58,116 nt of DNA from a virus, in the UHGV virus genome UHGV-0195737; one strand, 5' to 3'. The translations under genes were made by a program, and so were the position numbers. Under the pieces are notes generated by a model that saw nothing but the letters and a program-made list of their open reading frames with translations, made no database searches and was not told the origin of the DNA. Of the stretch, positions 84 to 11,243 are shown in pieces; positions within the stretch are counted from its first letter, which is position 1, and each line of letters starts with the position of its first letter.

Positions 84-110
84 AAAAGAAACGAGGCGTT
101 AGCCTCGTTT
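81..110 (-). terminator. Rho-independent terminator after tail-fibre gene
   Basis: 9-bp GC-rich stem AAACGAGGC/GCCTCGTTT followed on minus strand by CTTTTTGT. Confidence 0.5.
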
Positions 111-140
111 CGCGCGGCGATGTTCTTCGCACATCACCTC

Positions 141-1643
141 TTATTCTTCGCTTCCGGTTAACTGCTTAACAAGCGCAACCAGTTCGCTAACCTGATTTTC
201 AAGATTGGTGATGCGTTCATCCATGACAGCCGCGCTAGCGCGTAAGTTGGCGTTTTCTTCCTCCAGTGCGGTAACGCGATCATCTGTTTCGCGTGCCACC
301 TGGACAAGCAGACCAGTTACTGCGGCATAGTCTACGTTAAGGTAGCGTGTTTCTTCTCGCAGTTCATGACCGCTTTGTGTCGGGCCTGCCAGTTCTTCAC
401 CGTACTGAATAAACGATCCTACCGCTTCCGGGATGGCCTCCATACATTCCTGAGCGATAACACCAGCGTAAGGCAGGCCGTTTTCTTTCAGGGTGTAGGT
501 GTAACCATTCATTTTGCGGATCGCTGCGGTGGCGTCGCTAATGACCTGGATGTTATCTTTCAAGTCGCGGTCTGAGGATTGAGATAGCGAAGTGCAAGCA
601 ACGCTACCGTTAACATTAAGGGTCTGCGATGTGTCGCTTTGACGTTGAGCGTAAAACAGATAGCCTGTTGAAAGTTTTACCTCAAAGACGCTATAGCGAT
701 CCGAACCTTCGTAACCATCACCCCAGCATTGTACATACATGTCATGGTAAGCGTTACCGCTATTCTGGAGAACAAAAGATTTACCGGACATTCCACTAGG
801 TTGCACCAAATGCAAATCACAGGTAGATGTTAAGCCGCTATCACTAAGCGTTAAAGTCTGCGATGTGCCAGTTTGCCCGCCACTGTAAAGCTGTACAGAT
901 CCGTCGTCGCCATTCAGCATTACACCTTCGCTACCTAAATAATCTTCAAACCATACCTTATACGTCTGGCTCTTATATGTGCCAAGATACCAGCCCATGT
1001 TTTTTCCGGTGGAGTCGTAACCAGTAAGGCCGCAATTCATCGCACTGCGTTTCGACGTGTCGCCGATGATATGCAAATCGCCACCACCAGATCTAACCGC
1101 TGATGTGGTAGTCAGGCTGTTGACTGTTAAGTCAGTGGATGTGCTTAGGTCGTCTGTGGTTAATAAACGCTTCCAGCCATTATCCGTGCCAGCCTCAAAA
1201 GTCCTGGCCCAAAATTGGGATAAGCGCCCGGCAAACTGAACAGCATAGTTACCGCTGAATTGAACATGAAAACCACCGAACACGGTCGGATCTGATGGCC
1301 CATTAGTGCTGCCAGCCATAGGCTTAAATTTGTTTACGTTATCGGATATTTGCCCGCTCCAATCCGCGCCAGTGTGGGTAACGTGACCGCCAGGCGAGTG
1401 AAACGTGCCGTCTTTGTTAAAGTTAAAGAATTTATGTGCGGCGGCGGTTGTGAGATCGCGAACAATTACTTGGCCCTGGTTTTCTCCTGATCTGAATTCA
1501 GCCTGGCCGATTACTGCGCCAGTCGAATCTTTGAGCTTGGAATAAAATGTATTATTAACAACATCAACCCCTTGCGCCGTGAATGAATAACCGGAAAAAA
1601 CACCCTTTTCGGCGGTCACTTTACCTTCTGTTGTAATGCTCAT
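141..1643 (-). CDS. Tail fibre protein with C-terminal intramolecular chaperone (peptidase S74-like) domain
   Basis: 500 aa; SDRDLKDNI autoproteolysis-type motif and C-terminal coiled coil; strong SD AGGGGG upstream. Confidence 0.65.
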   Translation of the reverse strand: MSITTEGKVTAEKGVFSGYSFTAQGVDVVNNTFYSKLKDSTGAVIGQAEFRSGENQGQVIVRDLTTAAAHKFFNFNKDGTFHSPGGHVTHTGADWSGQISDNVNKFKPMAGSTNGPSDPTVFGGFHVQFSGNYAVQFAGRLSQFWARTFEAGTDNGWKRLLTTDDLSTSTDLTVNSLTTTSAVRSGGGDLHIIGDTSKRSAMNCGLTGYDSTGKNMGWYLGTYKSQTYKVWFEDYLGSEGVMLNGDDGSVQLYSGGQTGTSQTLTLSDSGLTSTCDLHLVQPSGMSGKSFVLQNSGNAYHDMYVQCWGDGYEGSDRYSVFEVKLSTGYLFYAQRQSDTSQTLNVNGSVACTSLSQSSDRDLKDNIQVISDATAAIRKMNGYTYTLKENGLPYAGVIAQECMEAIPEAVGSFIQYGEELAGPTQSGHELREETRYLNVDYAAVTGLLVQVARETDDRVTALEEENANLRASAAVMDERITNLENQVSELVALVKQLTGSEE

Positions 1644-1655
1644 TACTACCCCCTA

Positions 1656-1922
1656 TTAAGCCCATGCGCGGACGCCCGGATCTGGAACAATAAAGTCTTC
1701 CAGCGGGGCAATATCAATGTTGTCACTGGTTATGCGCATGTTGACGTAATACCCTTTGCGCTCGATTAAAACCGGGTTTTCACTTTCTGGATCGTCGAAT
1801 ACCAAAACAAAACCAATATCATCAATAAATACGGTTGACGGCTGGGCGTCCAGCCAGCCGCTATTAATCACAATGTCGTTATATTGTTGTTTATCAGTAA
1901 ACTGTAAGCTAATATCTCGCAT
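1656..1922 (-). CDS. Hypothetical protein between fibre genes
   Basis: 88-aa ORF with SD AAGGTGA, ATG start, packed between two fibre genes. Confidence 0.4.
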   Translation of the reverse strand: MRDISLQFTDKQQYNDIVINSGWLDAQPSTVFIDDIGFVLVFDDPESENPVLIERKGYYVNMRITSDNIDIAPLEDFIVPDPGVRAWA

Positions 1923-1931
1923 GTTATCACC

Positions 1932-4900
1932 TTAAACCTTTTCGAATAATTGCCCGTCGGTTAGCGCTTTGTGCCAGATACGGAAATTGCGGATGTGTCC
2001 GAATAAGTGGCGCTCACCTGTTGATGTTTGACCGCCGAATCTGATGTTTTTGTCCTGAGTTACTCCACCGTAAGAACATGTTGCATCTGCAACGGCTACA
2101 CCATTCATGATTACATGGAAAGTATCATCATCTTTAACTACCGCACCAATAATGGCCTTATTTGGCAATACGGAAGCGGCGGCGGAATTGATATAAGCTC
2201 CGTCACTTTTGGATAGAGACATGTAATACTTATCGCTACCACGGTTAACCGCAGCGATAACGCCCTGCCCCGTATTAGCGTTGGCAATATCAAAAACACG
2301 CGGCGCGGCGTTTGGCGCTCTGAACCAGTCCTTGTGAAGCTCGATCAGGAAACTGAACGGAGGACGCGCAAGGTTGTTTTTAGTCGTAATGCTTACTAGA
2401 TCGCTCGCACGGGTAGAAGGAGTTGAACCTGAGCAAATATACGATGATGCATTCGGGCCAAGCTCGACTTGAGGTGTCGCTAGTTCCATGTAGTCGCCGG
2501 ACACGAACGCGCTAACCGGAGCAAGCTGAATTTGTGCAGTAACCAGCGTTACGGTTGATTTATACGTCACCACTGCGCGATTCCATCCGGTGATGTTGTC
2601 TGTTGTTACACTAACAGTGATATTGTCTGCACCGCCGCCTGCTTTCGTTACAGTCATGTCGCTTAGTTTGATATACGCATCACACAGGAATGCCAGGCTG
2701 GAAGTATCTTCACCACCAGCAAAACGGATACGCAACCGGACGTCGCTTGACGAACGAAAACGACAAGAAACCGTGACGTACTGTTCATCGTGCTGAGTAG
2801 TGTCGATAACGTTAGCAGTGATCACTGATGCCATGTTGCAAGCACCAGTACCGCCAACTGCACTGTCGTCGATCACGAATTTTCCGTACAGGAAACCGTA
2901 GCTGTCAGTTTCTGCTGTAGCGGTGATATTAGTTGATCGGCCCCAACTTGCAGGAACGCTACCGTTAATAAAGAAGTTTGTGCGAGTACCTTCAATTAAT
3001 AATCCCTCGCGTTCGAAACGTGGCTCATCAATATCAGCAATGGTTAAAACACCGGATTTATTAATATAAGTCGCAGTGCTGGCGCGGGCGAAGCCCACCA
3101 CTTTATCCGACGGGATGGATGTGGTTTCGTCGTTAACCGTTACTTTCTTATAGCCAGGAGCGAAGCCTGCCAGCATATCAAGTGAATCGTTAAACGGTAT
3201 CCATACGTCAGGAAATGGTGCTTCTTCATGAATAAGTGGATCGGATTCGAATTTAGCCCAATCCGTCCAGGTTTCCAAATTGGCGTAATAGGTGCGCATG
3301 TAATACAAACCCGTCGAATTGTACGGGTAATATAATTGCGTGGCCCCGTTTGTATAGTTGCCGTTTTTCAGTACAACCAGTGCACCACCATATTTGCATG
3401 GGTAATGCAGTTCGGTTGTTGCTTTTGATGATGCGCCCTGCCAGTAAACACCGGAATAAGCGGCGGTAAGCGTATCCAGATCGGTGTCAGCTAGTGAGCT
3501 TTTTTGTTCGTGCATAGCGGCAAGGTTGGTGCGGGCCGTGGCTGCATCGTTTGCACCTGTACCACCATGTGATAAATCAAGCGGAATCCATTTTGATTGA
3601 GTGTCGCTATAACAGCCCCACGATGTTCCAGTAAGCCCTAAACGCATAGATGAATCTGCGTTATATACCCAGGTTTCACTACCCCATTGAGCAAGGCGAT
3701 CTACTTTTAAGTTTTCTCTTGCTTCGTCGACTGTTACAGCCCCTGTGCCGCCCTGTTCAATAGCTAACGCCTTCCAGCAATTATCAACCGGACTGTAATA
3801 ACCCCAGCGGCCCGTCGCGTCGAGCTGAAGATAGCACCCTGCTGTCGAGTCGTCCATAGAATAAACTACTGTCCGATTGCTGCCGCTTTGATTAAATCGA
3901 CTAACCTCATTTTTTCTTGCGTGTCGCGTCCATTGTGGGCCAGTGCTTTCACTCCAACGATAAGTATAAAGCGAGCGTGTCCCCCACCCCTGGAAAATGC
4001 CTGTATATGATGGCGAACCATCGTTTACGCTAATGAAGCCTGTTAGATATGCTTCACCGTCCGCGACGTCTTCGGGCCATCCGGTGACGCCTTCGCGAAT
4101 ACGAATAAAGCCAATGTAAGCGGCGGGATTGCCGGAAATATCGGCGCAATCGCGCGGGGCGTTAGTTAGACCAATGTCACCCAATAACACACCAGAACTA
4201 AGAAAACGCGCCCATTCTGACCATGTGAAAGTTGCCGCATCAAAACTACGAAGATAAAACGAAGCATTATAGTTATAAGGGTAATAAATTTGCGTGCATC
4301 CAGAATCAGTATTAGCACTATTCCCAATCACAACAAGCGCACCCGCATTATTGCACGGATAATGGCGATCAGTAGTAGCTTGCGCGTTGAGTTTTTGGCG
4401 ATAAAAACCGGAATACTCGCCCGTGAGCGTATCCAGATCCGTGTCAGCAAGATCGGTTTTTTGCTCGTACATTACTTGTAAATTTGTGCGGGCTTGTCCG
4501 GCGTTACCGCCGCCCGTACCACCATAATTGATGCCTAACTTAATTGCCCCATCAACTGAATAAGCACCCCACCCCGTATTATTCACGAAGATGTAATTTT
4601 GGCCCACGCCGTCCCATAACTGCGTTTCGCCTGTTGAGTTACTCGTCTGCAATAAGCGGCTTACTTCATCCTTCCGGGCGTGACGTGTCCAGCCGTAAGT
4701 CCCATCGGCATTGTTATACATGTATGTATAAAGTGAGCGCGTGTTAGTTCCCACAAAACAGCCGTTAATGATCAGGCCGTCACCGCGTGCCAGCCAGCCT
4801 ACCAAGTAGACTTCACCGGAAGCGATAGACGGGAAACCCGTTGCGGTCGCCTCTTCCAGACGAACAAAGCCAATATAGGCTGATGGGTTAACTGTGCAAT

Positions 4901-5909
4901 CAGGCCAATCACGGCGATCAGCACCCAGGCCAATAAGAGATAGTGAATCTTCTGATAGTGATTTTGCTTGCTCCATGTAGGTTTTGGCGTTCGCTTCCGA
5001 AAGTGCGGCGGCGGTGGCTGATTCTGCGGCGGCGGCGGCATTAGCTGCAATTTCTTGTTCGTCTTCTGCAACATTGGCGGCGCTTGTTTCGGCAGCAGTG
5101 GCGGCTTCTGTAGCGATGGTGGCTTGTTCGGTTGCTGTGGTCGCTGATTCTGCGGCGTTATTCATCCAGATGTACGCCGTGCCGCGATGATCTTTTGCCT
5201 CTGCGGCGGCGGCCGCGGCGGCGGTGGCTTGTTCGGTCGCTACGGCTGCCTGTTCAGTTGCGACGGTTGCTTGCGCGGCGGCTTCGTCACGGGCCGTTTC
5301 GGTAGCGGTCTGCGCGGTCTGCGCGGCGCTGGCGGCATTAGTGGCGATGGTGGCTTGTTCGGTTGCCGTGGTCGCCTGCGTGGTGGCGGTGGCGGCATGT
5401 TTCCCAGCCAGTACGCTGTAATCTTCTGCGGCATTTTTCGCGGTAATAGCTTCATCCCGCGCGGCGGCGGTTGTTTCAACGTCTGCGGCGGTCGCGGCGG
5501 CGTTGGCGTTTGATTGCGCTGTTTCTGCCTGAATAGCGGCTAACAGTGCTTCAACCTGCGCGGCATCACCATAATTTTTCCAGTATTCGACGGCAGCATA
5601 GATCTCTGATTCTTGTCCGGTGAAATAGCGCAATGCCTCCGCTACGTCCTGGGCCAGCCCGTCAACCGAGATCGAATCGCACAGCAAAATACTGTAAGCA
5701 GTACCCGCCGGAATATCCGGTGATGCTGCCGGGGTTACAGACAATTCCGTTTCACTGACAATTTCAGTGATAGAAAAGATCTGAATGGGGTTACTTTTTA
5801 CGATAACAGTACACCCCACGCGGATCATGGATAGCGGCGCTTTAAAATTCGTACCCGTCCCGGTCAGCGTGTTACCGGATACGGCAATGCTTCCAATGGT
5901 GTAGATCAT
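1932..5909 (-). CDS. Long tail fibre protein, repeat-rich
   Basis: 1325 aa; Ala/Thr/Gln-rich low-complexity segment; two tandem copies of a ~250-aa module (TRHARK-EVSR, HYPC-GALVV-YYPYN). Confidence 0.65.
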   Translation of the reverse strand: MIYTIGSIAVSGNTLTGTGTNFKAPLSMIRVGCTVIVKSNPIQIFSITEIVSETELSVTPAASPDIPAGTAYSILLCDSISVDGLAQDVAEALRYFTGQESEIYAAVEYWKNYGDAAQVEALLAAIQAETAQSNANAAATAADVETTAAARDEAITAKNAAEDYSVLAGKHAATATTQATTATEQATIATNAASAAQTAQTATETARDEAAAQATVATEQAAVATEQATAAAAAAAEAKDHRGTAYIWMNNAAESATTATEQATIATEAATAAETSAANVAEDEQEIAANAAAAAESATAAALSEANAKTYMEQAKSLSEDSLSLIGLGADRRDWPDCTVNPSAYIGFVRLEEATATGFPSIASGEVYLVGWLARGDGLIINGCFVGTNTRSLYTYMYNNADGTYGWTRHARKDEVSRLLQTSNSTGETQLWDGVGQNYIFVNNTGWGAYSVDGAIKLGINYGGTGGGNAGQARTNLQVMYEQKTDLADTDLDTLTGEYSGFYRQKLNAQATTDRHYPCNNAGALVVIGNSANTDSGCTQIYYPYNYNASFYLRSFDAATFTWSEWARFLSSGVLLGDIGLTNAPRDCADISGNPAAYIGFIRIREGVTGWPEDVADGEAYLTGFISVNDGSPSYTGIFQGWGTRSLYTYRWSESTGPQWTRHARKNEVSRFNQSGSNRTVVYSMDDSTAGCYLQLDATGRWGYYSPVDNCWKALAIEQGGTGAVTVDEARENLKVDRLAQWGSETWVYNADSSMRLGLTGTSWGCYSDTQSKWIPLDLSHGGTGANDAATARTNLAAMHEQKSSLADTDLDTLTAAYSGVYWQGASSKATTELHYPCKYGGALVVLKNGNYTNGATQLYYPYNSTGLYYMRTYYANLETWTDWAKFESDPLIHEEAPFPDVWIPFNDSLDMLAGFAPGYKKVTVNDETTSIPSDKVVGFARASTATYINKSGVLTIADIDEPRFEREGLLIEGTRTNFFINGSVPASWGRSTNITATAETDSYGFLYGKFVIDDSAVGGTGACNMASVITANVIDTTQHDEQYVTVSCRFRSSSDVRLRIRFAGGEDTSSLAFLCDAYIKLSDMTVTKAGGGADNITVSVTTDNITGWNRAVVTYKSTVTLVTAQIQLAPVSAFVSGDYMELATPQVELGPNASSYICSGSTPSTRASDLVSITTKNNLARPPFSFLIELHKDWFRAPNAAPRVFDIANANTGQGVIAAVNRGSDKYYMSLSKSDGAYINSAAASVLPNKAIIGAVVKDDDTFHVIMNGVAVADATCSYGGVTQDKNIRFGGQTSTGERHLFGHIRNFRIWHKALTDGQLFEKV
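4990..5520. repeat. GC-rich tandem coding repeats inside fibre gene
   Basis: Repeated GGTGGCTTGTTCGGT-type units encoding AT(E/A)QAT-like repeats. Confidence 0.5.
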
Positions 5910-5952
5910 TGCAATGACTCCATTATGTTAATTAACGGAATAATTCTACCAT

Positions 5953-5968
5953 TTTGTGATCTATGTTA
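5953..5968. promoter_or_regulatory. CRP-like palindrome upstream of lipoprotein gene
   Basis: TGTGA-N6-TTACA about 100 bp upstream of the 6069 start, next to CCATTTTGT/ACAAAATG inverted repeat. Confidence 0.25.
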
Positions 5969-6068
5969 CATTTCTGGTTTATACAAAATGTGTTTGTTGA
6001 TTTACATCAATGTTGTAAAAATGCGGTTTATGGATACTACAACCAACGAAACAACGGAGGGTAAGACA

Positions 6069-6308
6069 ATGAAAGGTTTAAAAAATATCGCTATCGCTGC
6101 AATGGTTGCTGGTCTGGTTGGTTGTGCTGATATGCCAAAACGTGAATGTACAGCAATCTATCAAACTGGCGGTAATGAATATGCGGTTGCAGTCTTTGGC
6201 GTTGCAGATGTTGGCGGTCACAAAATGGTTAAGGCCGGGTATCCGTTCAATTTCCAATGGGTGAGCGTTGACCACTTCAAGAAAACGGATTGCCCGGAAC
6301 TGAATTAA
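6069..6308 (+). CDS. Small lipoprotein (moron; possible superinfection-exclusion lipoprotein)
   Basis: Start moved to internal ATG with SD GGAGGG; signal peptide with lipobox LVGC; opposite strand to flanking tail genes. Confidence 0.5.
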   Translation: MKGLKNIAIAAMVAGLVGCADMPKRECTAIYQTGGNEYAVAVFGVADVGGHKMVKAGYPFNFQWVSVDHFKKTDCPELN

Positions 6309-6904
6309 TCATAGGCGTCGGTTTTAATGGCGGTGATAGCGTTCCCGTGGTTAATGTAGCTGTAAGCCTGCTGCAAGCTACCAACCTGTTTTCCGCGAAT
6401 TCGTGTAGTGCTGCCGTTGTAGTATGCCTCTGTATATATTGTTGCAGAACCCATACCTACAACGGCCCCTAATATCTGAGGCACTACCGCATAAGATCCT
6501 GATAATGTTTGATCGATATAAATCCCCCCGCTCGATCCCGCCGTGCCTACTGTAACAAGGTCGGTTAATATTTTTGATTCATTGGTCAGTACCAATTCCC
6601 CGGAAGCGTTCCAGATAGCCATCCCCCATCTCGGCAGCGATGGCGGGAAGATGCTGAATATATACGCATACCCGTTACCAGGCGGGATCACTACCGTAGA
6701 TGATGATGCGCGATAAGCAAGCCCCGTGGCGGTGTCGTCGGTGTTTTTGATGAATACCATTACAGGCTTGCCGTCGGGTACAGCGATCGTTTGTTGCTGG
6801 CTGGAATTTAAGGCCACCCGCGAATATAAACACATCGGGGTAGAATCCGGCGTCACAAAAATATTGCCATTATCCAGGCGTAAATAAGCGCCAAAAGTAG
6901 CCAT
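6305..6904 (-). CDS. Hypothetical tail-associated protein (MATFG family)
   Basis: 199 aa; shares N-terminal MATFG with the next gene; SD ACGGAG. Confidence 0.4.
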   Translation of the reverse strand: MATFGAYLRLDNGNIFVTPDSTPMCLYSRVALNSSQQQTIAVPDGKPVMVFIKNTDDTATGLAYRASSSTVVIPPGNGYAYIFSIFPPSLPRWGMAIWNASGELVLTNESKILTDLVTVGTAGSSGGIYIDQTLSGSYAVVPQILGAVVGMGSATIYTEAYYNGSTTRIRGKQVGSLQQAYSYINHGNAITAIKTDAYD

Positions 6905-7215
6905 TATGCAATCTCCGTAAAAATAATCAGGTCACATTGTGATGCGGGCCATATATCAGCCCCTACCGTATCCCCTGCTGAGGAAATGGAAACAGTGCCG
7001 CCGGAAATACTAATCTTTCTGCGCGTTGACGATGTTGTACCATAATCAAGCGCCACGCCATAAGATAATTTGCACCCGGTTGGAACGGTAAAAGAATATG
7101 TGCCGGATACTTGCCCGGAAGACAAGGAAATATAGCCAACCACGACGGAAGGTTTGATTCCATAGTTATTAGGATTGCCGTTGGCGTCCCAGGTCGCTAT
7201 GCCGAAAGTAGCCAT
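6904..7215 (-). CDS. Hypothetical tail-associated protein (MATFG family)
   Basis: 103 aa; strong SD AAGGAGGTGA; paralogous N-terminus to 6305-6904. Confidence 0.4.
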   Translation of the reverse strand: MATFGIATWDANGNPNNYGIKPSVVVGYISLSSGQVSGTYSFTVPTGCKLSYGVALDYGTTSSTRRKISISGGTVSISSAGDTVGADIWPASQCDLIIFTEIA

Positions 7216-7265: not shown

Positions 7266-10200
7266 TTACCATGATCCGGTAATTCGCCCAATCTGGACGC
7301 GTAACACGCTATTTCCATCTCTGACAGAGATTGTTGTGTTCGTCCATTTCATCGCTCCTTCACCGCTTACTGATCCGTAGTTTTCGAATGTACCGGATTT
7401 ATCCAGCTTCCAGCCAGTACTACCGGAAACATAGTTATTTGACTGGATGTAAGATCCAATTTTCGCGTTAGTGATTGAGGCGTCTTTAATAAACGCTTCG
7501 CGCACATACATTGCACCATTTGTGACATAGAAAGGCGTTGTATATGTGCCGTTTGCCGCTGTCATTAATACAAAGCGGTCAGCAAGGAAAATACATTGCG
7601 ATTGCGTACTCGTACCGCTGCCAGTCAAGCCAAGCGAGATCCCGGAAAAATATTTCATGCCGTTGTTGTCTGCGGCGATCTTAACGCTCCACGTTGCCGA
7701 CATGTCGGTTTCAAGGCCAGCGATGGCGGTTTTATTTTCCTCAATTGATACCGATTGCCCCTCGATTGACGCCGTAATACTTTCAATCTGCGTGGCGGTC
7801 GATTCCTTATAGGTTGTAAACGCTTCGCTCCACTCCGTGATCGACGCCTCGTTTGCTTCCAGCGATGCGCTAATTTCCGCAAACTGAGTAGCATTAGCTT
7901 GTTCATGGGTGGCAAGCGCGGATTGCATTTCGGTAATAGCTGCCGCCACATCGTCGTCTATTTGCGCCTGTAGTTGCTCCAGCTTCTGCGCGGTTGCTTG
8001 TTCATTGGTTGCGATCGTCTGATTAGTTTCAGTGATTGCAGCCTCATTCTCATCAATCTGACTTTGCAGGCTATTAAACTGCGTAGCGTTGGCTTTTTCG
8101 TGGGTAGCGAGTGCTTGCTCCATGTTGCTTATTGCTGACGATATATCACCATCTACTTTAGCCTCAAGGTTGCTAATAGATTCAGATGTGGATGATTCCA
8201 GATCGGTGATCGTCTGGTTAATCTCCGTTATGCTTGCCTGAATATCTTCGTTGACCTGGCTTTCTAATTTTTCGATCGACTGGCTTGTCGAACTTTCAAG
8301 CGTTGCAATGGTTTGTTGCAGTTCGGTTACGTTGGCGCTGATTTCGTCATTGACCTTGCTTTCGAGTGTCGTAAGCGCCTGCGCGGTCGCTTCTTTCTCT
8401 GTAGCGATCACAGTGTCGATGCGCTCAATCTCCGCCTTCGTTTCTGCTTTCTGGTTTTTATACTGTGCCGTCAACGTGGTGCGCGTGCTGGTGTTAGCCA
8501 GTGAGTTATTCATAAGCGCAATAGCTGCGTTTTGCAGGCTGGCGCGTGTCTGGATTAGTTCATTTTCCTGTTCAGTTAACTCGACGCTGATTTCGTTGAT
8601 CTGGCTTTCATGTTCTCCAATTCCATCCTCATTGTTTTTCACGCGTTCTTCCAGGTCTGCGGTCGATTCTTTCAGATCGGTAACAGCCTGGTCAATATCT
8701 ACCGTGGTTTGTTTCAGTTCTTCCACATCGCCCATCAAGCCGCCTGTTACCTCGTCGATGGTTTCTTTAATCATGTCCTGAAATTGCTCACCCTCCATAA
8801 CTTCATTCAGCACGGCATCCGTGATTTCTTCGAAGTTTTCGGACGGCTTACCACTGGCTTCGATAAAGTCAGATACGCCGAAAGCGTTTTTTGTGCGCAC
8901 GTAAACGTAATACGTGTGGCCCGTTGCCATCCCGCCAAAAGTCCACTGATAGCCGCGCCCGGAAAATTGCGCTGATGTTGTTACCAGTGAGAAGTCAGTA
9001 ATCTGGTTTTCTCCAGCGTAATAGAATTCGTAAGTAGTATCAGTCGTTAGCGTGCTGTTGCTGATCGGGTAAACAGTCGCCTGAAAAACACCTGGCACCC
9101 AATTAACACCAGTCGGCGCGGCAGGCGCACCAACAATAAGATCTACCAGTGTTTCCGCTCCCTTCATCCCGGTGTCATTGCGCCCACGAATACCAAGCGA
9201 ATAATTACCGCACTCAAGGCCGAAAAAGTCATACCGGTAATTTTGCGTTTCGTAGCTCGCCACCACGCGCCCGTCGGTGTCATAAATGCGGATCTCAAAG
9301 GTTAATGCGCGGGTAGTGGTTTGAGTTTCCCAGGTGGCGCGGCATTGAACTGTTTCCGATCCAATGTTTATCACTTTCAGGTTTTCGATGTTCGGTACAC
9401 GGAAGTGATTCAGCGTGTCGCTGTTAACCTCAAAGATTGCGCCCTCATCGACAACCGCTTGCTTGTTCGGATCGTGCTGCGCGGCCTCAATGGTGTATAC
9501 GCTGTTATTTTCGGTTTCGGCTACGCTAGTGATTCGACATAAAACGGGTTTTGCCGCTTCGGTTGATACAGCAAATACAGTACCGTTCCGAATCCATGCC
9601 GGGGCCGCCGCTAAGGTGATCTCGTTTCCATTCACTCCGGTGATCTGGTGTTTTTTAAATTTACCATCGCTATCGAGCAAGCTGATGGTGTCGCCTGCCG
9701 TAATGTACTCGCTATCAACCTTATCAACCGTTATCACGTTCCCGTTATTCGCCACGATACGACCGCCTAAACGCGCGCCAGCACGGTTATTATCGAGAAT
9801 CTCGATAATATCCCCTGGTGTAAAGTGAATCGCGTCACGGGCCATTTTAAACGTGAATTTCGACGGCTCGCGTTTTGCTGTTTCTATCAGCCATTTGCCC
9901 GCGCGGTACGCTTGCCCGCGTGATGTACAGCCGAACGCCTCCAGTGTGGTTTCATTGTAACCATCGCGGGCGATTAGCTCATCATCCGCTACATACTCTT
10001 TTGATTGCTCCCAGCCGTTTTCCGGATCAGTCCAGGATACAATCACGGCGTTGTAACATTCCGCACGCGCAATGCTTGAACGGGTGAATGCACCATCAAC
10101 GACGTTTGCGTTTGTGATGGTTGCAATCGGATCTTGCGGTGCATCGAGCATTACAGTAAGTGTTTGACCGTCCCATAACGCAATCCCCCGGAACATTCCG

Positions 10201-11243
10201 GCAATGTTGTCCAGTAAGTCGCGGGCGCTCATTTGCTCCGTAATGTATGCATTAAGCGTCACGCGCGGCTCAAGGCCGCCATAACCATCGTCAACCAACT
10301 GATCGCAGTATTGGGAAAGCGTGTATAATGCGCCGTCGTCAACGTCAATATAACCAGCATGGCGGGCAAGGCCAAAACGCTCGTTTTTAACCAGATACCG
10401 GAAGATCCACGCTGGGTTATTGGTGTACACCTGTTTCATCCCGCCCAGCCATAAACCGGAATAAGTGCGCGTTTCCGGATCGTAGTTATCCGGTACATCA
10501 ACAATCAGGCCACGCATGTGATAAGTGCGTGTCGGCGTGTCGGTATACTGGTCATGATCAATCACCGCGCCCGCTACAGCGGTGTGAGGATAAGACAAGT
10601 TATCGTCGATAATTTCACTGTAGCTATTCCAGCGGGTATCATTCTGCAATAGATCGCCCGTGCTGTCAGGTGTTATGCGGCGAACGCGAATATCGAACGG
10701 TTTTTCGTCCGGCGCATCAATGATGTGTGATTCCAGATATTCACCGCTAATCTTACCCGGACCGATTTGCACGGCCTTAATCGCCGACCAGATTGATGAT
10801 GATGATGGTTTTACATCAATCGCCATAAAAACTGATGTTTCATGCTGGTTTGATTCGCTGTCACTTTCCACCAGTGAATCCACGCCAATATTCAACCGGA
10901 CGCGCGTCACGTTCGGATCTGATACCGTCCTTACCAGTGGCGTGTCATATTTCACCTGCGCGTTAACCATTACCGTAGATTCAATGGCGTTGAAGCCGTT
11001 GATCGGTGACTGGTCGGCAGTACCCGGACGCCAGGCGACGCTAACGCCTGGGATACTGGTATTACCCACGGCATCCGTAACAGGTGTGTCATTAAGCATT
11101 ACGCAGTTTAACGGGGCAGCGGTATTGACCGGACCGTAAATCGGCCCTTCACTCAATATATCCAGAACCCGGTAAAATTGCTTATGAAATAAATTGTCGT
11201 TTATTAATGTTGGTGTTTTTGCTTTACCACCGCCGCCGCCCAT
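7266..11243 (-). CDS. J: Host specificity / tail tip protein J-like
   Basis: N-terminus matches lambda J as recalled (DxxSEGPIxGPV, NDTPV); long central coiled-coil repeat region; position after I. Confidence 0.8.
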   Translation of the reverse strand: MGGGGGKAKTPTLINDNLFHKQFYRVLDILSEGPIYGPVNTAAPLNCVMLNDTPVTDAVGNTSIPGVSVAWRPGTADQSPINGFNAIESTVMVNAQVKYDTPLVRTVSDPNVTRVRLNIGVDSLVESDSESNQHETSVFMAIDVKPSSSSIWSAIKAVQIGPGKISGEYLESHIIDAPDEKPFDIRVRRITPDSTGDLLQNDTRWNSYSEIIDDNLSYPHTAVAGAVIDHDQYTDTPTRTYHMRGLIVDVPDNYDPETRTYSGLWLGGMKQVYTNNPAWIFRYLVKNERFGLARHAGYIDVDDGALYTLSQYCDQLVDDGYGGLEPRVTLNAYITEQMSARDLLDNIAGMFRGIALWDGQTLTVMLDAPQDPIATITNANVVDGAFTRSSIARAECYNAVIVSWTDPENGWEQSKEYVADDELIARDGYNETTLEAFGCTSRGQAYRAGKWLIETAKREPSKFTFKMARDAIHFTPGDIIEILDNNRAGARLGGRIVANNGNVITVDKVDSEYITAGDTISLLDSDGKFKKHQITGVNGNEITLAAAPAWIRNGTVFAVSTEAAKPVLCRITSVAETENNSVYTIEAAQHDPNKQAVVDEGAIFEVNSDTLNHFRVPNIENLKVINIGSETVQCRATWETQTTTRALTFEIRIYDTDGRVVASYETQNYRYDFFGLECGNYSLGIRGRNDTGMKGAETLVDLIVGAPAAPTGVNWVPGVFQATVYPISNSTLTTDTTYEFYYAGENQITDFSLVTTSAQFSGRGYQWTFGGMATGHTYYVYVRTKNAFGVSDFIEASGKPSENFEEITDAVLNEVMEGEQFQDMIKETIDEVTGGLMGDVEELKQTTVDIDQAVTDLKESTADLEERVKNNEDGIGEHESQINEISVELTEQENELIQTRASLQNAAIALMNNSLANTSTRTTLTAQYKNQKAETKAEIERIDTVIATEKEATAQALTTLESKVNDEISANVTELQQTIATLESSTSQSIEKLESQVNEDIQASITEINQTITDLESSTSESISNLEAKVDGDISSAISNMEQALATHEKANATQFNSLQSQIDENEAAITETNQTIATNEQATAQKLEQLQAQIDDDVAAAITEMQSALATHEQANATQFAEISASLEANEASITEWSEAFTTYKESTATQIESITASIEGQSVSIEENKTAIAGLETDMSATWSVKIAADNNGMKYFSGISLGLTGSGTSTQSQCIFLADRFVLMTAANGTYTTPFYVTNGAMYVREAFIKDASITNAKIGSYIQSNNYVSGSTGWKLDKSGTFENYGSVSGEGAMKWTNTTISVRDGNSVLRVQIGRITGSW

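Follow-up and report, generated by a model that had tools for sequence, protein, structure and literature searches.

Why does a single tail fibre carry two copies of the same large module, and is the gene that encodes it built to vary? These questions are raised by the virus genome UHGV-0195737, a stretch of 58,116 nucleotides (nt) referred to here as the window, in which a minus-strand open reading frame (ORF) at 1932..5909 codes for a protein of 1325 amino acids (aa). An earlier note on this DNA had described a giant fibre with a tandemly duplicated module and repeat-rich DNA, and had suggested that both serve host-range diversification. The giant tail fibre is borne out. We propose, with a probability of about 0.8 for the reading as a whole, that it is the lateral (side) tail fibre of a temperate Escherichia coli siphovirus of the mEp021/mEpimmI group. 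As expected of a side fibre, the gene is part of the tail module and is placed downstream of J, the gene of the central fibre, and its N-terminal anchor is 75-98% identical among homologues with unrelated distal parts. The core of the window is ~85% identical at the DNA level to Escherichia phage MagusPhagus and to phages mEp010, mEp013, mEp021, mEp044, mEp515 and mEp554, which form the Nus-dependent non-lambdoid temperate 'mEpimmI' group (PMC11893012). The fibre adds one more member to a known kind of phage fibre, with an unusual, hybrid arrangement, and its variation is that of ordinary domain shuffling and not of an active repeat-driven switch.

The duplication itself is clear. A BLASTP search of the fibre against itself returned only the identity match and was replaced by an alignment of segments with shuffled controls. 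Smith-Waterman alignment of aa 321-580 with aa 581-900 gave a score of 492, compared with 41 ± 7 for 300 residue-shuffled controls (z = 67), with aa 332-578 aligning to aa 585-895. The earlier note had proposed that its claim of tandem modules should fall if self-alignment revealed no internal duplication; the alignment reveals a highly significant one. All of the motifs quoted in that note occur twice, namely TRHARK (aa 408 and 661), EVSR (415 and 668), HYPC (516 and 835), GALVV (523 and 842) and YYPYN (542 and 860). The offset between the two occurrences is 253 aa in one part of the module, which we call X, and 318-319 aa in another, which we call Y. Between X (~93 aa) and Y (~93 aa) lies a third part, R (~58 aa). 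Copy A has the order X-R-Y and spans aa 332-578 (~247 aa), and copy B, with the order X-R-R-Y, spans aa 585-895 (~311 aa) and is longer because of an extra R unit of ~60 aa. On the minus strand, copy A is thus composed of X_A (aa 332-425; 4635..4916), R_A (aa 426-482; 4464..4634) and Y_A (aa 483-578; 4176..4463), and copy B of X_B (aa 585-678; 3876..4157), R_B1 (aa 679-740; 3690..3875), the extra unit R_B2 (aa 741-800; 3510..3689) and Y_B (aa 801-895; 3225..3509). X_A and X_B are identical at 46 of 91 positions (51%, z = 35), Y_A and Y_B at 48 of 92 (52%, z = 41), and the three R units show pairwise identities of 37-47% (z ~12).

The two copies share ~51% aa identity and 53% codon-aligned nt identity, but only 31% at third codon positions, which are saturated, and the longest exact DNA word common to both has 14 nt. 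Moreover, they have different nearest relatives. For copy A, the nearest match is the first module in a family of 1600-aa fibres (79-86%), and copy B together with the C-terminus is closest to a set of single-module fibres (P0004-P0008; 69-73%), X_B being 69-77% identical to the single or first X of other fibres. The different relatives and the saturated third positions suggest that the pair consists of old paralogues, which were joined by exchange between fibre alleles and not by slippage, and on the same grounds a recent duplication in place was ruled out. As judged from the sequences, the duplication is ancient and the copies are not a substrate for copy-to-copy recombination; the low nt identity and the short common word argue against recent or recombinogenic copies.

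What kind of domains were duplicated? The module, X and R included, is matched by no Pfam or NCBIfam model, and no curated 'pyocin knob' hidden Markov model in NCBIfam release 20 or Pfam fires, even on relatives that bear this name. A profile built from 45 diverse Y domains and searched against the sequences of the Protein Data Bank (PDB) matched the R2 pyocin fibre PA0620 (6cl6_A, residues 137-208, E = 7.9e-15; 6ct8, E = 1.5e-14) and the R1 fibre (6cl5, E = 4.4e-12). These matches fall in the knob region of the pyocin fibres, and we therefore assign Y_A and Y_B to the pyocin-type knobs. For X, a profile search against PDB sequences returned only spurious feruloyl-esterase matches, none of them significant. 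An AlphaFold2 model of the single X domain (predicted local distance difference test score, pLDDT, 92; predicted template modelling score 0.80) is confident and has five strands and a C-terminal helix, and its best fold matches, again to knob regions of fibres, are phi812 baseplate chains (template modelling score, TM, 0.58-0.64; probability 0.98-0.99), with the R2 pyocin fibre (6cl6) at TM 0.56-0.60. X may therefore have a knob-like fold. A model of both modules has a mean pLDDT of 65, with values of 72-89 in X and Y (~87 in Y_B), and matches fibres of R1/R2 pyocins, and fibres or RBPs (receptor-binding proteins) from the staphylococcal phages phi812, P68 and phi11, at a Foldseek probability of ~1.0. 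For the pyocin fibres the probability is 1.0 and E = 1.5e-5, but the global TM is low. In the viral library BFVD, the same model matched fibres of T1, Seurat and rV5-like phages.

The R units each comprise a beta-hairpin segment followed by a C-terminal motif, 'PL.I..GGTGA....AR.NLG' (in short GGTG..AR.NL), which recurs in solved fibres. An R profile matches 7z47 (E = 4e-13), 8vbx, the T5 L-shaped fibre 8hqz and the R1 pyocin fibre 6cl5. One might speculate that three R hairpin units could form a beta-prism-like ring in a trimer. As a side observation, the N-terminal hairpin half of the R profile (3510-3875 and 4464-4634 in the window) gave weak summed matches to bulb-type mannose-binding lectins, among them pyocin L1/L2, putidacin, GNA and curculin (E = 1e-5 to 0.09), without a significant single stretch. 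The R units were also considered as B-lectin repeats; this was rejected, as none of 23 R units matches Pfam B_lectin, and inspection by eye of R_A, R_B1 and R_B2 found no QxDxNxVxY sugar-binding motif.

The module chain is followed by a C-terminal head (aa 896-1325 plus stop codon; 1932..3224, minus strand), which contains two recognisable domains. A GTA head-spike-fibre domain (NF048003) covers aa 971-1168 (E = 3e-13; 50.7 bits, the cut-off being 36; 1-181 of the 182 profile positions), and a ConA-like lectin/glucanase domain (PF13385, Laminin_G_3) covers aa 1195-1320 (E = 5e-8; 33.8 bits against a gathering threshold of 27.6). The head also matches phrog_1419 (E = 3e-158), and from nt 2698 of the gene (~aa 900) it is 86% identical at the DNA level to E. 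coli prophage genes. The head-spike fibre of RcGTA binds capsule (PMC10218006), and we presume from its domains that the head of the window fibre is a glycan-binding tip. The earlier note had regarded the duplicated modules as receptor-binding-like; they appear as internal knob-type shaft domains instead, and the terminal lectin-type head is the likelier receptor binder.

If the modules are not recent copies, how did this fibre come to have two? A set of 120 close homologues shows 11 domain architectures, the most frequent being N-X-R-Y (64/120) and N-X-R-Y-X-R (29/120), and 35/120 have two X domains. The architecture N-X-R-Y-X-R-R-Y-head is found in two of these proteins only, the window fibre (P0001) and P0002. 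These two are 84-97% identical in N, the second half of the shaft, X_A, R_A, X_B, R_B1, Y_B and the head, but only 54% in Y_A and 44% in R_B2. X_A and R_A are 87-96% conserved across fibres with unrelated distal ends. In an exhaustive search of 50%-identity clusters, 319 representatives match the module, Y being widespread and X narrower, and the representatives show orders and numbers such as Y-Y, Y x5, R-R-R-Y and X-R-Y-R-R-R-R-Y. As the relatives differ in the number of modules and R units, in shaft length and in the distal end, and as they swap sub-domains, modular exchange is supported. The proposed host-range diversification is thus upheld only in the broad sense of a family-wide modular exchange, and not by slippage or by recombination between the copies. 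Shuffling of protein fragments is described for phage host-interaction proteins in an earlier study (PMC10684548), and, as far as comparison of the sequences goes, the variation of this fibre is of that kind.

Upstream of the modules lies the N-terminal virion-anchor domain (aa 1-110; 5580..5909, minus strand), and PHROG tail-fibre families match the fibre from residue 1 onwards. Residues 3-170 match the N-termini of the solved Klebsiella-phage depolymerases 7vyv, 7vz3 and 7lzj (E = 7e-27), which identifies this region as the conserved anchor usual in fibres and spikes. The anchor is followed by an Ala/Thr/Glu/Gln-rich shaft (aa 111-331; 4917..5579, minus strand). The Ala/Thr/Gln-rich composition reported for 4990-5520 is real: aa 130-307 contain 40% Ala, 17% Thr, 10% Glu and 6% Gln, and the guanine-plus-cytosine (GC) content of 63% compares with 51% in the whole gene and 47% across the window. 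The residue autocorrelation peaks at lags of 7, 35 and 42, a signature of a heptad coiled-coil shaft, and the shaft is presumed to be a trimeric coiled coil. The DNA repeats, which the earlier note had called near-identical, are degenerate, with a 21-nt (heptad) period and units that are 60-85% alike. Tandem Repeats Finder reported only three tiny, trivial arrays in the fibre gene. The best repeat pair in the shaft (family D3) is 53 nt at 85% (5092-5144 and 5323-5375), at the core of which is an exact 23-nt repeat on the minus strand, with copy 1 at 5344..5366 (from aa 182) and copy 2 at 5113..5135 (from aa 259, coding for ATEQATIA). The two copies are 231 nt apart, that is 11 heptads or 77 aa, and they are the sole exact repeat above codon-shuffled controls (mean 11.7, maximum 16). 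The remaining exact repeats, of 15 nt or less, lie inside the codon-shuffled range, so that the Ala-rich repeats described as prone to slippage are mostly at the level expected from composition. The start of the first X varies among the 120 homologues, being at aa 217, 220, 252, 311, 322, 325 or 332, and the shaft indels of 7, 14, 80 and 112 aa are mostly heptad multiples (7, 14 and 112).

The genes downstream of the fibre show in what sense the locus is a hybrid. The next gene, ORF88 (1656..1922, minus strand; phrog_1361, E = 1e-26), has a ribosome-binding site (RBS), AAGGTGA, that overlaps the stop codon of the fibre. In all 31 viral loci with an ORF88 homologue (L008-L038, mEpimmI-like and T1-like phages among them), the homologue directly follows a gene ending in a GTA-spike/ConA-type head. 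This linkage suggests a dedicated assembly factor or adaptor for the head, and ORF88 is possibly such a protein. The third gene, ORF500 (141..1643, minus strand), codes for an additional short fibre protein that ends in an S74-type chaperone domain (PF13884), and it has its own RBS, GGGGG. Its identity with the final 486 aa of long fibres of 1350-1615 aa is 72-82%, and phrog_6578 is matched at positions 746-1210 by ORF500 and at 128-472 by the big fibre, as the two ends of one family. The N-domain model matches the big fibre only, leaving ORF500 with no N-anchor. An intrinsic terminator, GAAACGAGGCTAACGCCTCGTTTC, with a 10-bp stem and a T-run (88..111, minus strand), closes the fibre-ORF88-ORF500 unit. 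Most mEpimmI-like phages among the ORF88 loci have a short N-shaft-head fibre (~595 aa), ORF88 and this same terminator; in such short-fibre relatives (L009, L013 and L022, at ~5310-5345) the terminator and its T-run directly follow ORF88, and this marks the right edge of the hybrid region. The three-gene arrangement recurs in the loci of P0002 and P0005, with intact third ORFs of 427-501 aa. The first 14 residues of the third gene, MSITT[E/Q]GK[V/I]TAEKG, are kept in the window, in L003 (5984-7267) and in L004 (9487-10992), though the following residues differ, and the third genes of T1-like phages have a different conserved start, MAT[S/V]TVIP[D/T]DI... Taken with the head-ORF88 linkage and the common terminator, the identity of ORF500 with a long-fibre distal end makes the locus look like a combination of the knob-chain type of fibre with the head-plus-ORF88 type.

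Other explanations of these findings have to be weighed. If the duplicated X-R-Y modules were themselves the receptor-binding units, two copies would give an extra or dual glycan specificity. Knob2 of R-pyocins has been suggested to join the foot in target binding, and knob-like domains are common in saccharide-binding fibres (PMC11871291). The replacement of Y_A and R_B2 between otherwise near-identical fibres is as expected under diversifying pressure, and the weak likeness of the N-terminal half of the R profile to a bulb-type mannose-binding lectin sub-repeat would point the same way. However, the modules are internal with the lectin-type head placed after them, X_A and R_A are strongly conserved in front of unrelated distal ends, and the R units lack a Pfam B_lectin match, so that we consider this explanation unlikely. 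Far less probable still, and in our view hardly tenable, is a contingency locus, in which recombination between module copies or slippage at Ala codons would often alter fibre length or copy number within a lineage. The 23-nt pair, which exceeds the shuffled expectation, and the prevalence of heptad multiples among the shaft indels would fit such a locus, but the copies offer at most 14 nt of exact identity, the other repeats are at chance level and form no real tandem arrays, and P0002 differs by 80 aa, which is not the 77 aa that separate the copies of the 23-nt pair. In addition, 6 contigs of several sources carry the identical protein of 1325 aa, with no variants in length; one of these contigs is a 4.6-Mb chromosome that carries it in a prophage, and another is a 54.6-kb phage contig.

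A further question is whether the big fibre acts alone and ORF500 is a dead leftover of a displaced fibre end. The missing anchor domain, the equivalence to the distal part of long fibres and the fact that most phages of the group with head and ORF88 have no third gene would all agree with a leftover. On the other hand, ORF500 is intact over its 500 aa, has a strong RBS and ends at the common terminator of the operon, intact third ORFs are found in two other loci, and the 14 residues at its start are conserved even where the sequence that follows has been swapped. In T1-like phages, too, the ORF88 homologue is followed by a short fibre gene of the S74 type, and branched lateral fibres made of two proteins are known in phage DT57C (PMC4728585, PMC10713586). 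We are thus doubtful that ORF500 is a relic; it may be a working second fibre, like LtfA/LtfB in DT57C, or it may be a leftover. The conserved 14-residue start could be a docking peptide for a branched fibre, and we tentatively put forward, as a speculation that is more apt to be wrong than right, that a portable branching cassette is formed by the head, ORF88 and a short fibre whose N-terminal peptide is conserved. ORF88, the lectin-type head or both would form a docking site, into which the anchor-less second fibre would plug by a peptide of ~14 residues (MSITTEGKVTAEKG here, MAT[SV]TVIP.. in T1-like phages), and the extra knob module would set the distance between the two tips. If this were true, a temperate phage would carry a two-tipped side fibre, and the adaptor system would be common to T1-like and mEpimmI phages and possibly to rV5-like myoviruses, for which the likeness to ORF88 is weak.

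Several observations weigh against our proposal of a knob-chain side fibre or against parts of it. The window's own Y domains give no match to a pyocin fibre as single sequences, and the family profile alone finds one. The assignment of X to the knobs rests on fold likeness with weak E-values (0.2-1.6), although such values are expected for a domain of 90 residues. The R units are poorly modelled (pLDDT 33-60). We also considered whether X and Y are diverged copies of one domain, which was rejected at the sequence level (hhalign probability 0.1; shuffle test z = 4.9 for X_A/Y_A and ~0 for the other pairs). The hybridisation may have gone in either direction, by insertion of the head cassette or by addition of ORF500. 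Finally, the study of the mEpimmI phages places receptor use (LamB/OmpA) on J and does not discuss this fibre (PMC11893012).

With these reservations, we propose that the side fibre has a beads-on-a-string build and infer that it is presumably a homotrimer. The conserved N-terminal anchor (aa 1-110) would join it to the tail tip, and the heptad coiled coil (aa 111-331) together with the knob chain (aa 332-895) would act as a spacer of adjustable length. The head (aa 896-1325) most likely binds a surface glycan, such as O-antigen, lipopolysaccharide core, enterobacterial common antigen or capsule, in a reversible first contact, and irreversible binding would be the task of J and of the small RBP genes next to cor. 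The extra module would give added reach and perhaps further sugar contacts of a weak kind. In small siphoviruses, conservation of the lateral fibres is confined to the far N-terminus, the fibres consist of a single protein or of several, and they are believed to bind O-antigen and to be non-essential (PMC8594841). The two-copy arrangement would have arisen by recombination at domain boundaries between fibre alleles. In this process, a long knob-chain fibre appears to have gained a cassette of knob, head and ORF88, which is also present in T1-like siphoviruses and, more distantly, in rV5-like myoviruses, and the old distal tip would have been left downstream as the separate gene ORF500.

Related arrangements are known from several systems. 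R-pyocin fibres have two knobs and a lectin-like foot (PMC11871291), and the R-type pyocin fibre PA0620 (R1/R2; 6cl5, 6cl6 and 6ct8), the knob region of which is homologous to the Y domains, resembles the window fibre in having tandem knobs followed by a lectin-like C-terminal binding domain; the R1 fibre also has the GGTG..AR.NL motif of the R units. Whereas PA0620 has two adjacent knobs and a foot, the window fibre has four knob-like domains with R units between them, its distal head is a GTA spike-fibre domain with a ConA-like lectin, and its N-terminus and shaft, a siphovirus side-fibre anchor and a long coiled coil, are unrelated. The lateral fibre of T1-like phages (Drexlerviridae; BEBK14 and BASEL isolates) shares the type of N-anchor (34%), an Ala-rich coiled coil and the head (55%), and in BEBK14 an ORF88 homologue and a short fibre gene of the S74 type come next, as in the window. 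The role presumed for T1-like lateral fibres, binding of O-antigen or another glycan as the primary receptor (PMC8594841), may by analogy also be that of the window fibre. However, the BEBK14 fibre has 653 aa and lacks X-R-Y modules, its head coming directly after the coiled coil. The long knob-chain fibres of E. coli mEpimmI-type prophages (1150-1615 aa, including the MagusPhagus fibre), which the Prokaryotic Genome Annotation Pipeline names 'pyocin knob domain-containing S74 family peptidase', are 75-98% identical in N-anchor, shaft and module A; a second X-R is present in 35/120, and their distal 486 aa correspond to ORF500. Each of them is one polypeptide with an S74 chaperone domain at its end, whereas in the window the lectin-type head, a stop codon and ORF88 break the chain behind module B. 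In the Vequintavirus (rV5-like) pangalan, gp174 has X-R-Y, a further R and Y and the same head (35% over aa 799-1322), and a small downstream ORF is weakly like ORF88 (E = 0.003), but gp174 is a myovirus protein with another N-terminus and ~560 aa of other sequence between the modules. The branched fibre of the T5-like phage DT57C has, like the window, two adjacent fibre genes with the anchor on the first only (PMC4728585, PMC10713586); this likeness is one of gene arrangement, and attachment of ORF500 to the big fibre is a hypothesis drawn by analogy.

The fibre thus provides a quantified example of how a side-fibre gene is built from an exchangeable anchor, heptad shaft, knobs, R units and lectin head, with breakpoints at sub-domain boundaries and a distal cassette that temperate and virulent phages from different families have in common. 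No new mechanism is revealed, and host recognition in the group is still ascribed chiefly to J and to the RBP/cor locus adjacent to it. As X and R have no Pfam or NCBIfam model, their description is useful for annotation, and it can help to pick junctions in fibre engineering.

When the whole gene was compared by megablast with 50,697 phage records, no match was found, and against E. coli genomes there were only partial matches, to the N-terminal part or to the head. On the 4.6-Mb chromosome, the prophage adjoins genes with nitrate-reductase, acetyltransferase and flavin-reductase Pfam domains, which are presumably host genes. Two ORFs that overlap the fibre gene, a Gly/Arg/Cys-rich antisense one on the plus strand (5187..5513) and a Pro-rich one in another frame of the minus strand (4799..5074), were rejected as frame shadows of the GC-rich Ala GCN codons. 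The gene order of the region is J, two small genes, the divergent cor for an exclusion lipoprotein, the fibre gene, ORF88, ORF500 and the strong terminator at 88-111. Cor (5925..6308, plus strand; NF047972, E = 3e-14) is probably shorter than the listed ORF, and the two genes between J and the fibre code for proteins of 103 aa (6904..7215; phrog_557) and 199 aa (6305..6904; phrog_425). The layout at 5925-7215 corresponds to an RBP locus plus exclusion protein downstream of gpJ, as in T1-like and other small siphoviruses, and by analogy hints at the use of an FhuA-type receptor. The J-like central fibre (7266..11243, minus strand; phrog_31, E = 0) also has exactly 1325 aa, by coincidence. Tandem Repeats Finder found no DNA tandem repeats in J, and at aa ~780-1130 its protein has a long Glu/Gln/Thr/Ala-rich, coiled-coil-like segment with repeated peptide blocks (ATQF...SLQSQIDENEAAITE...).

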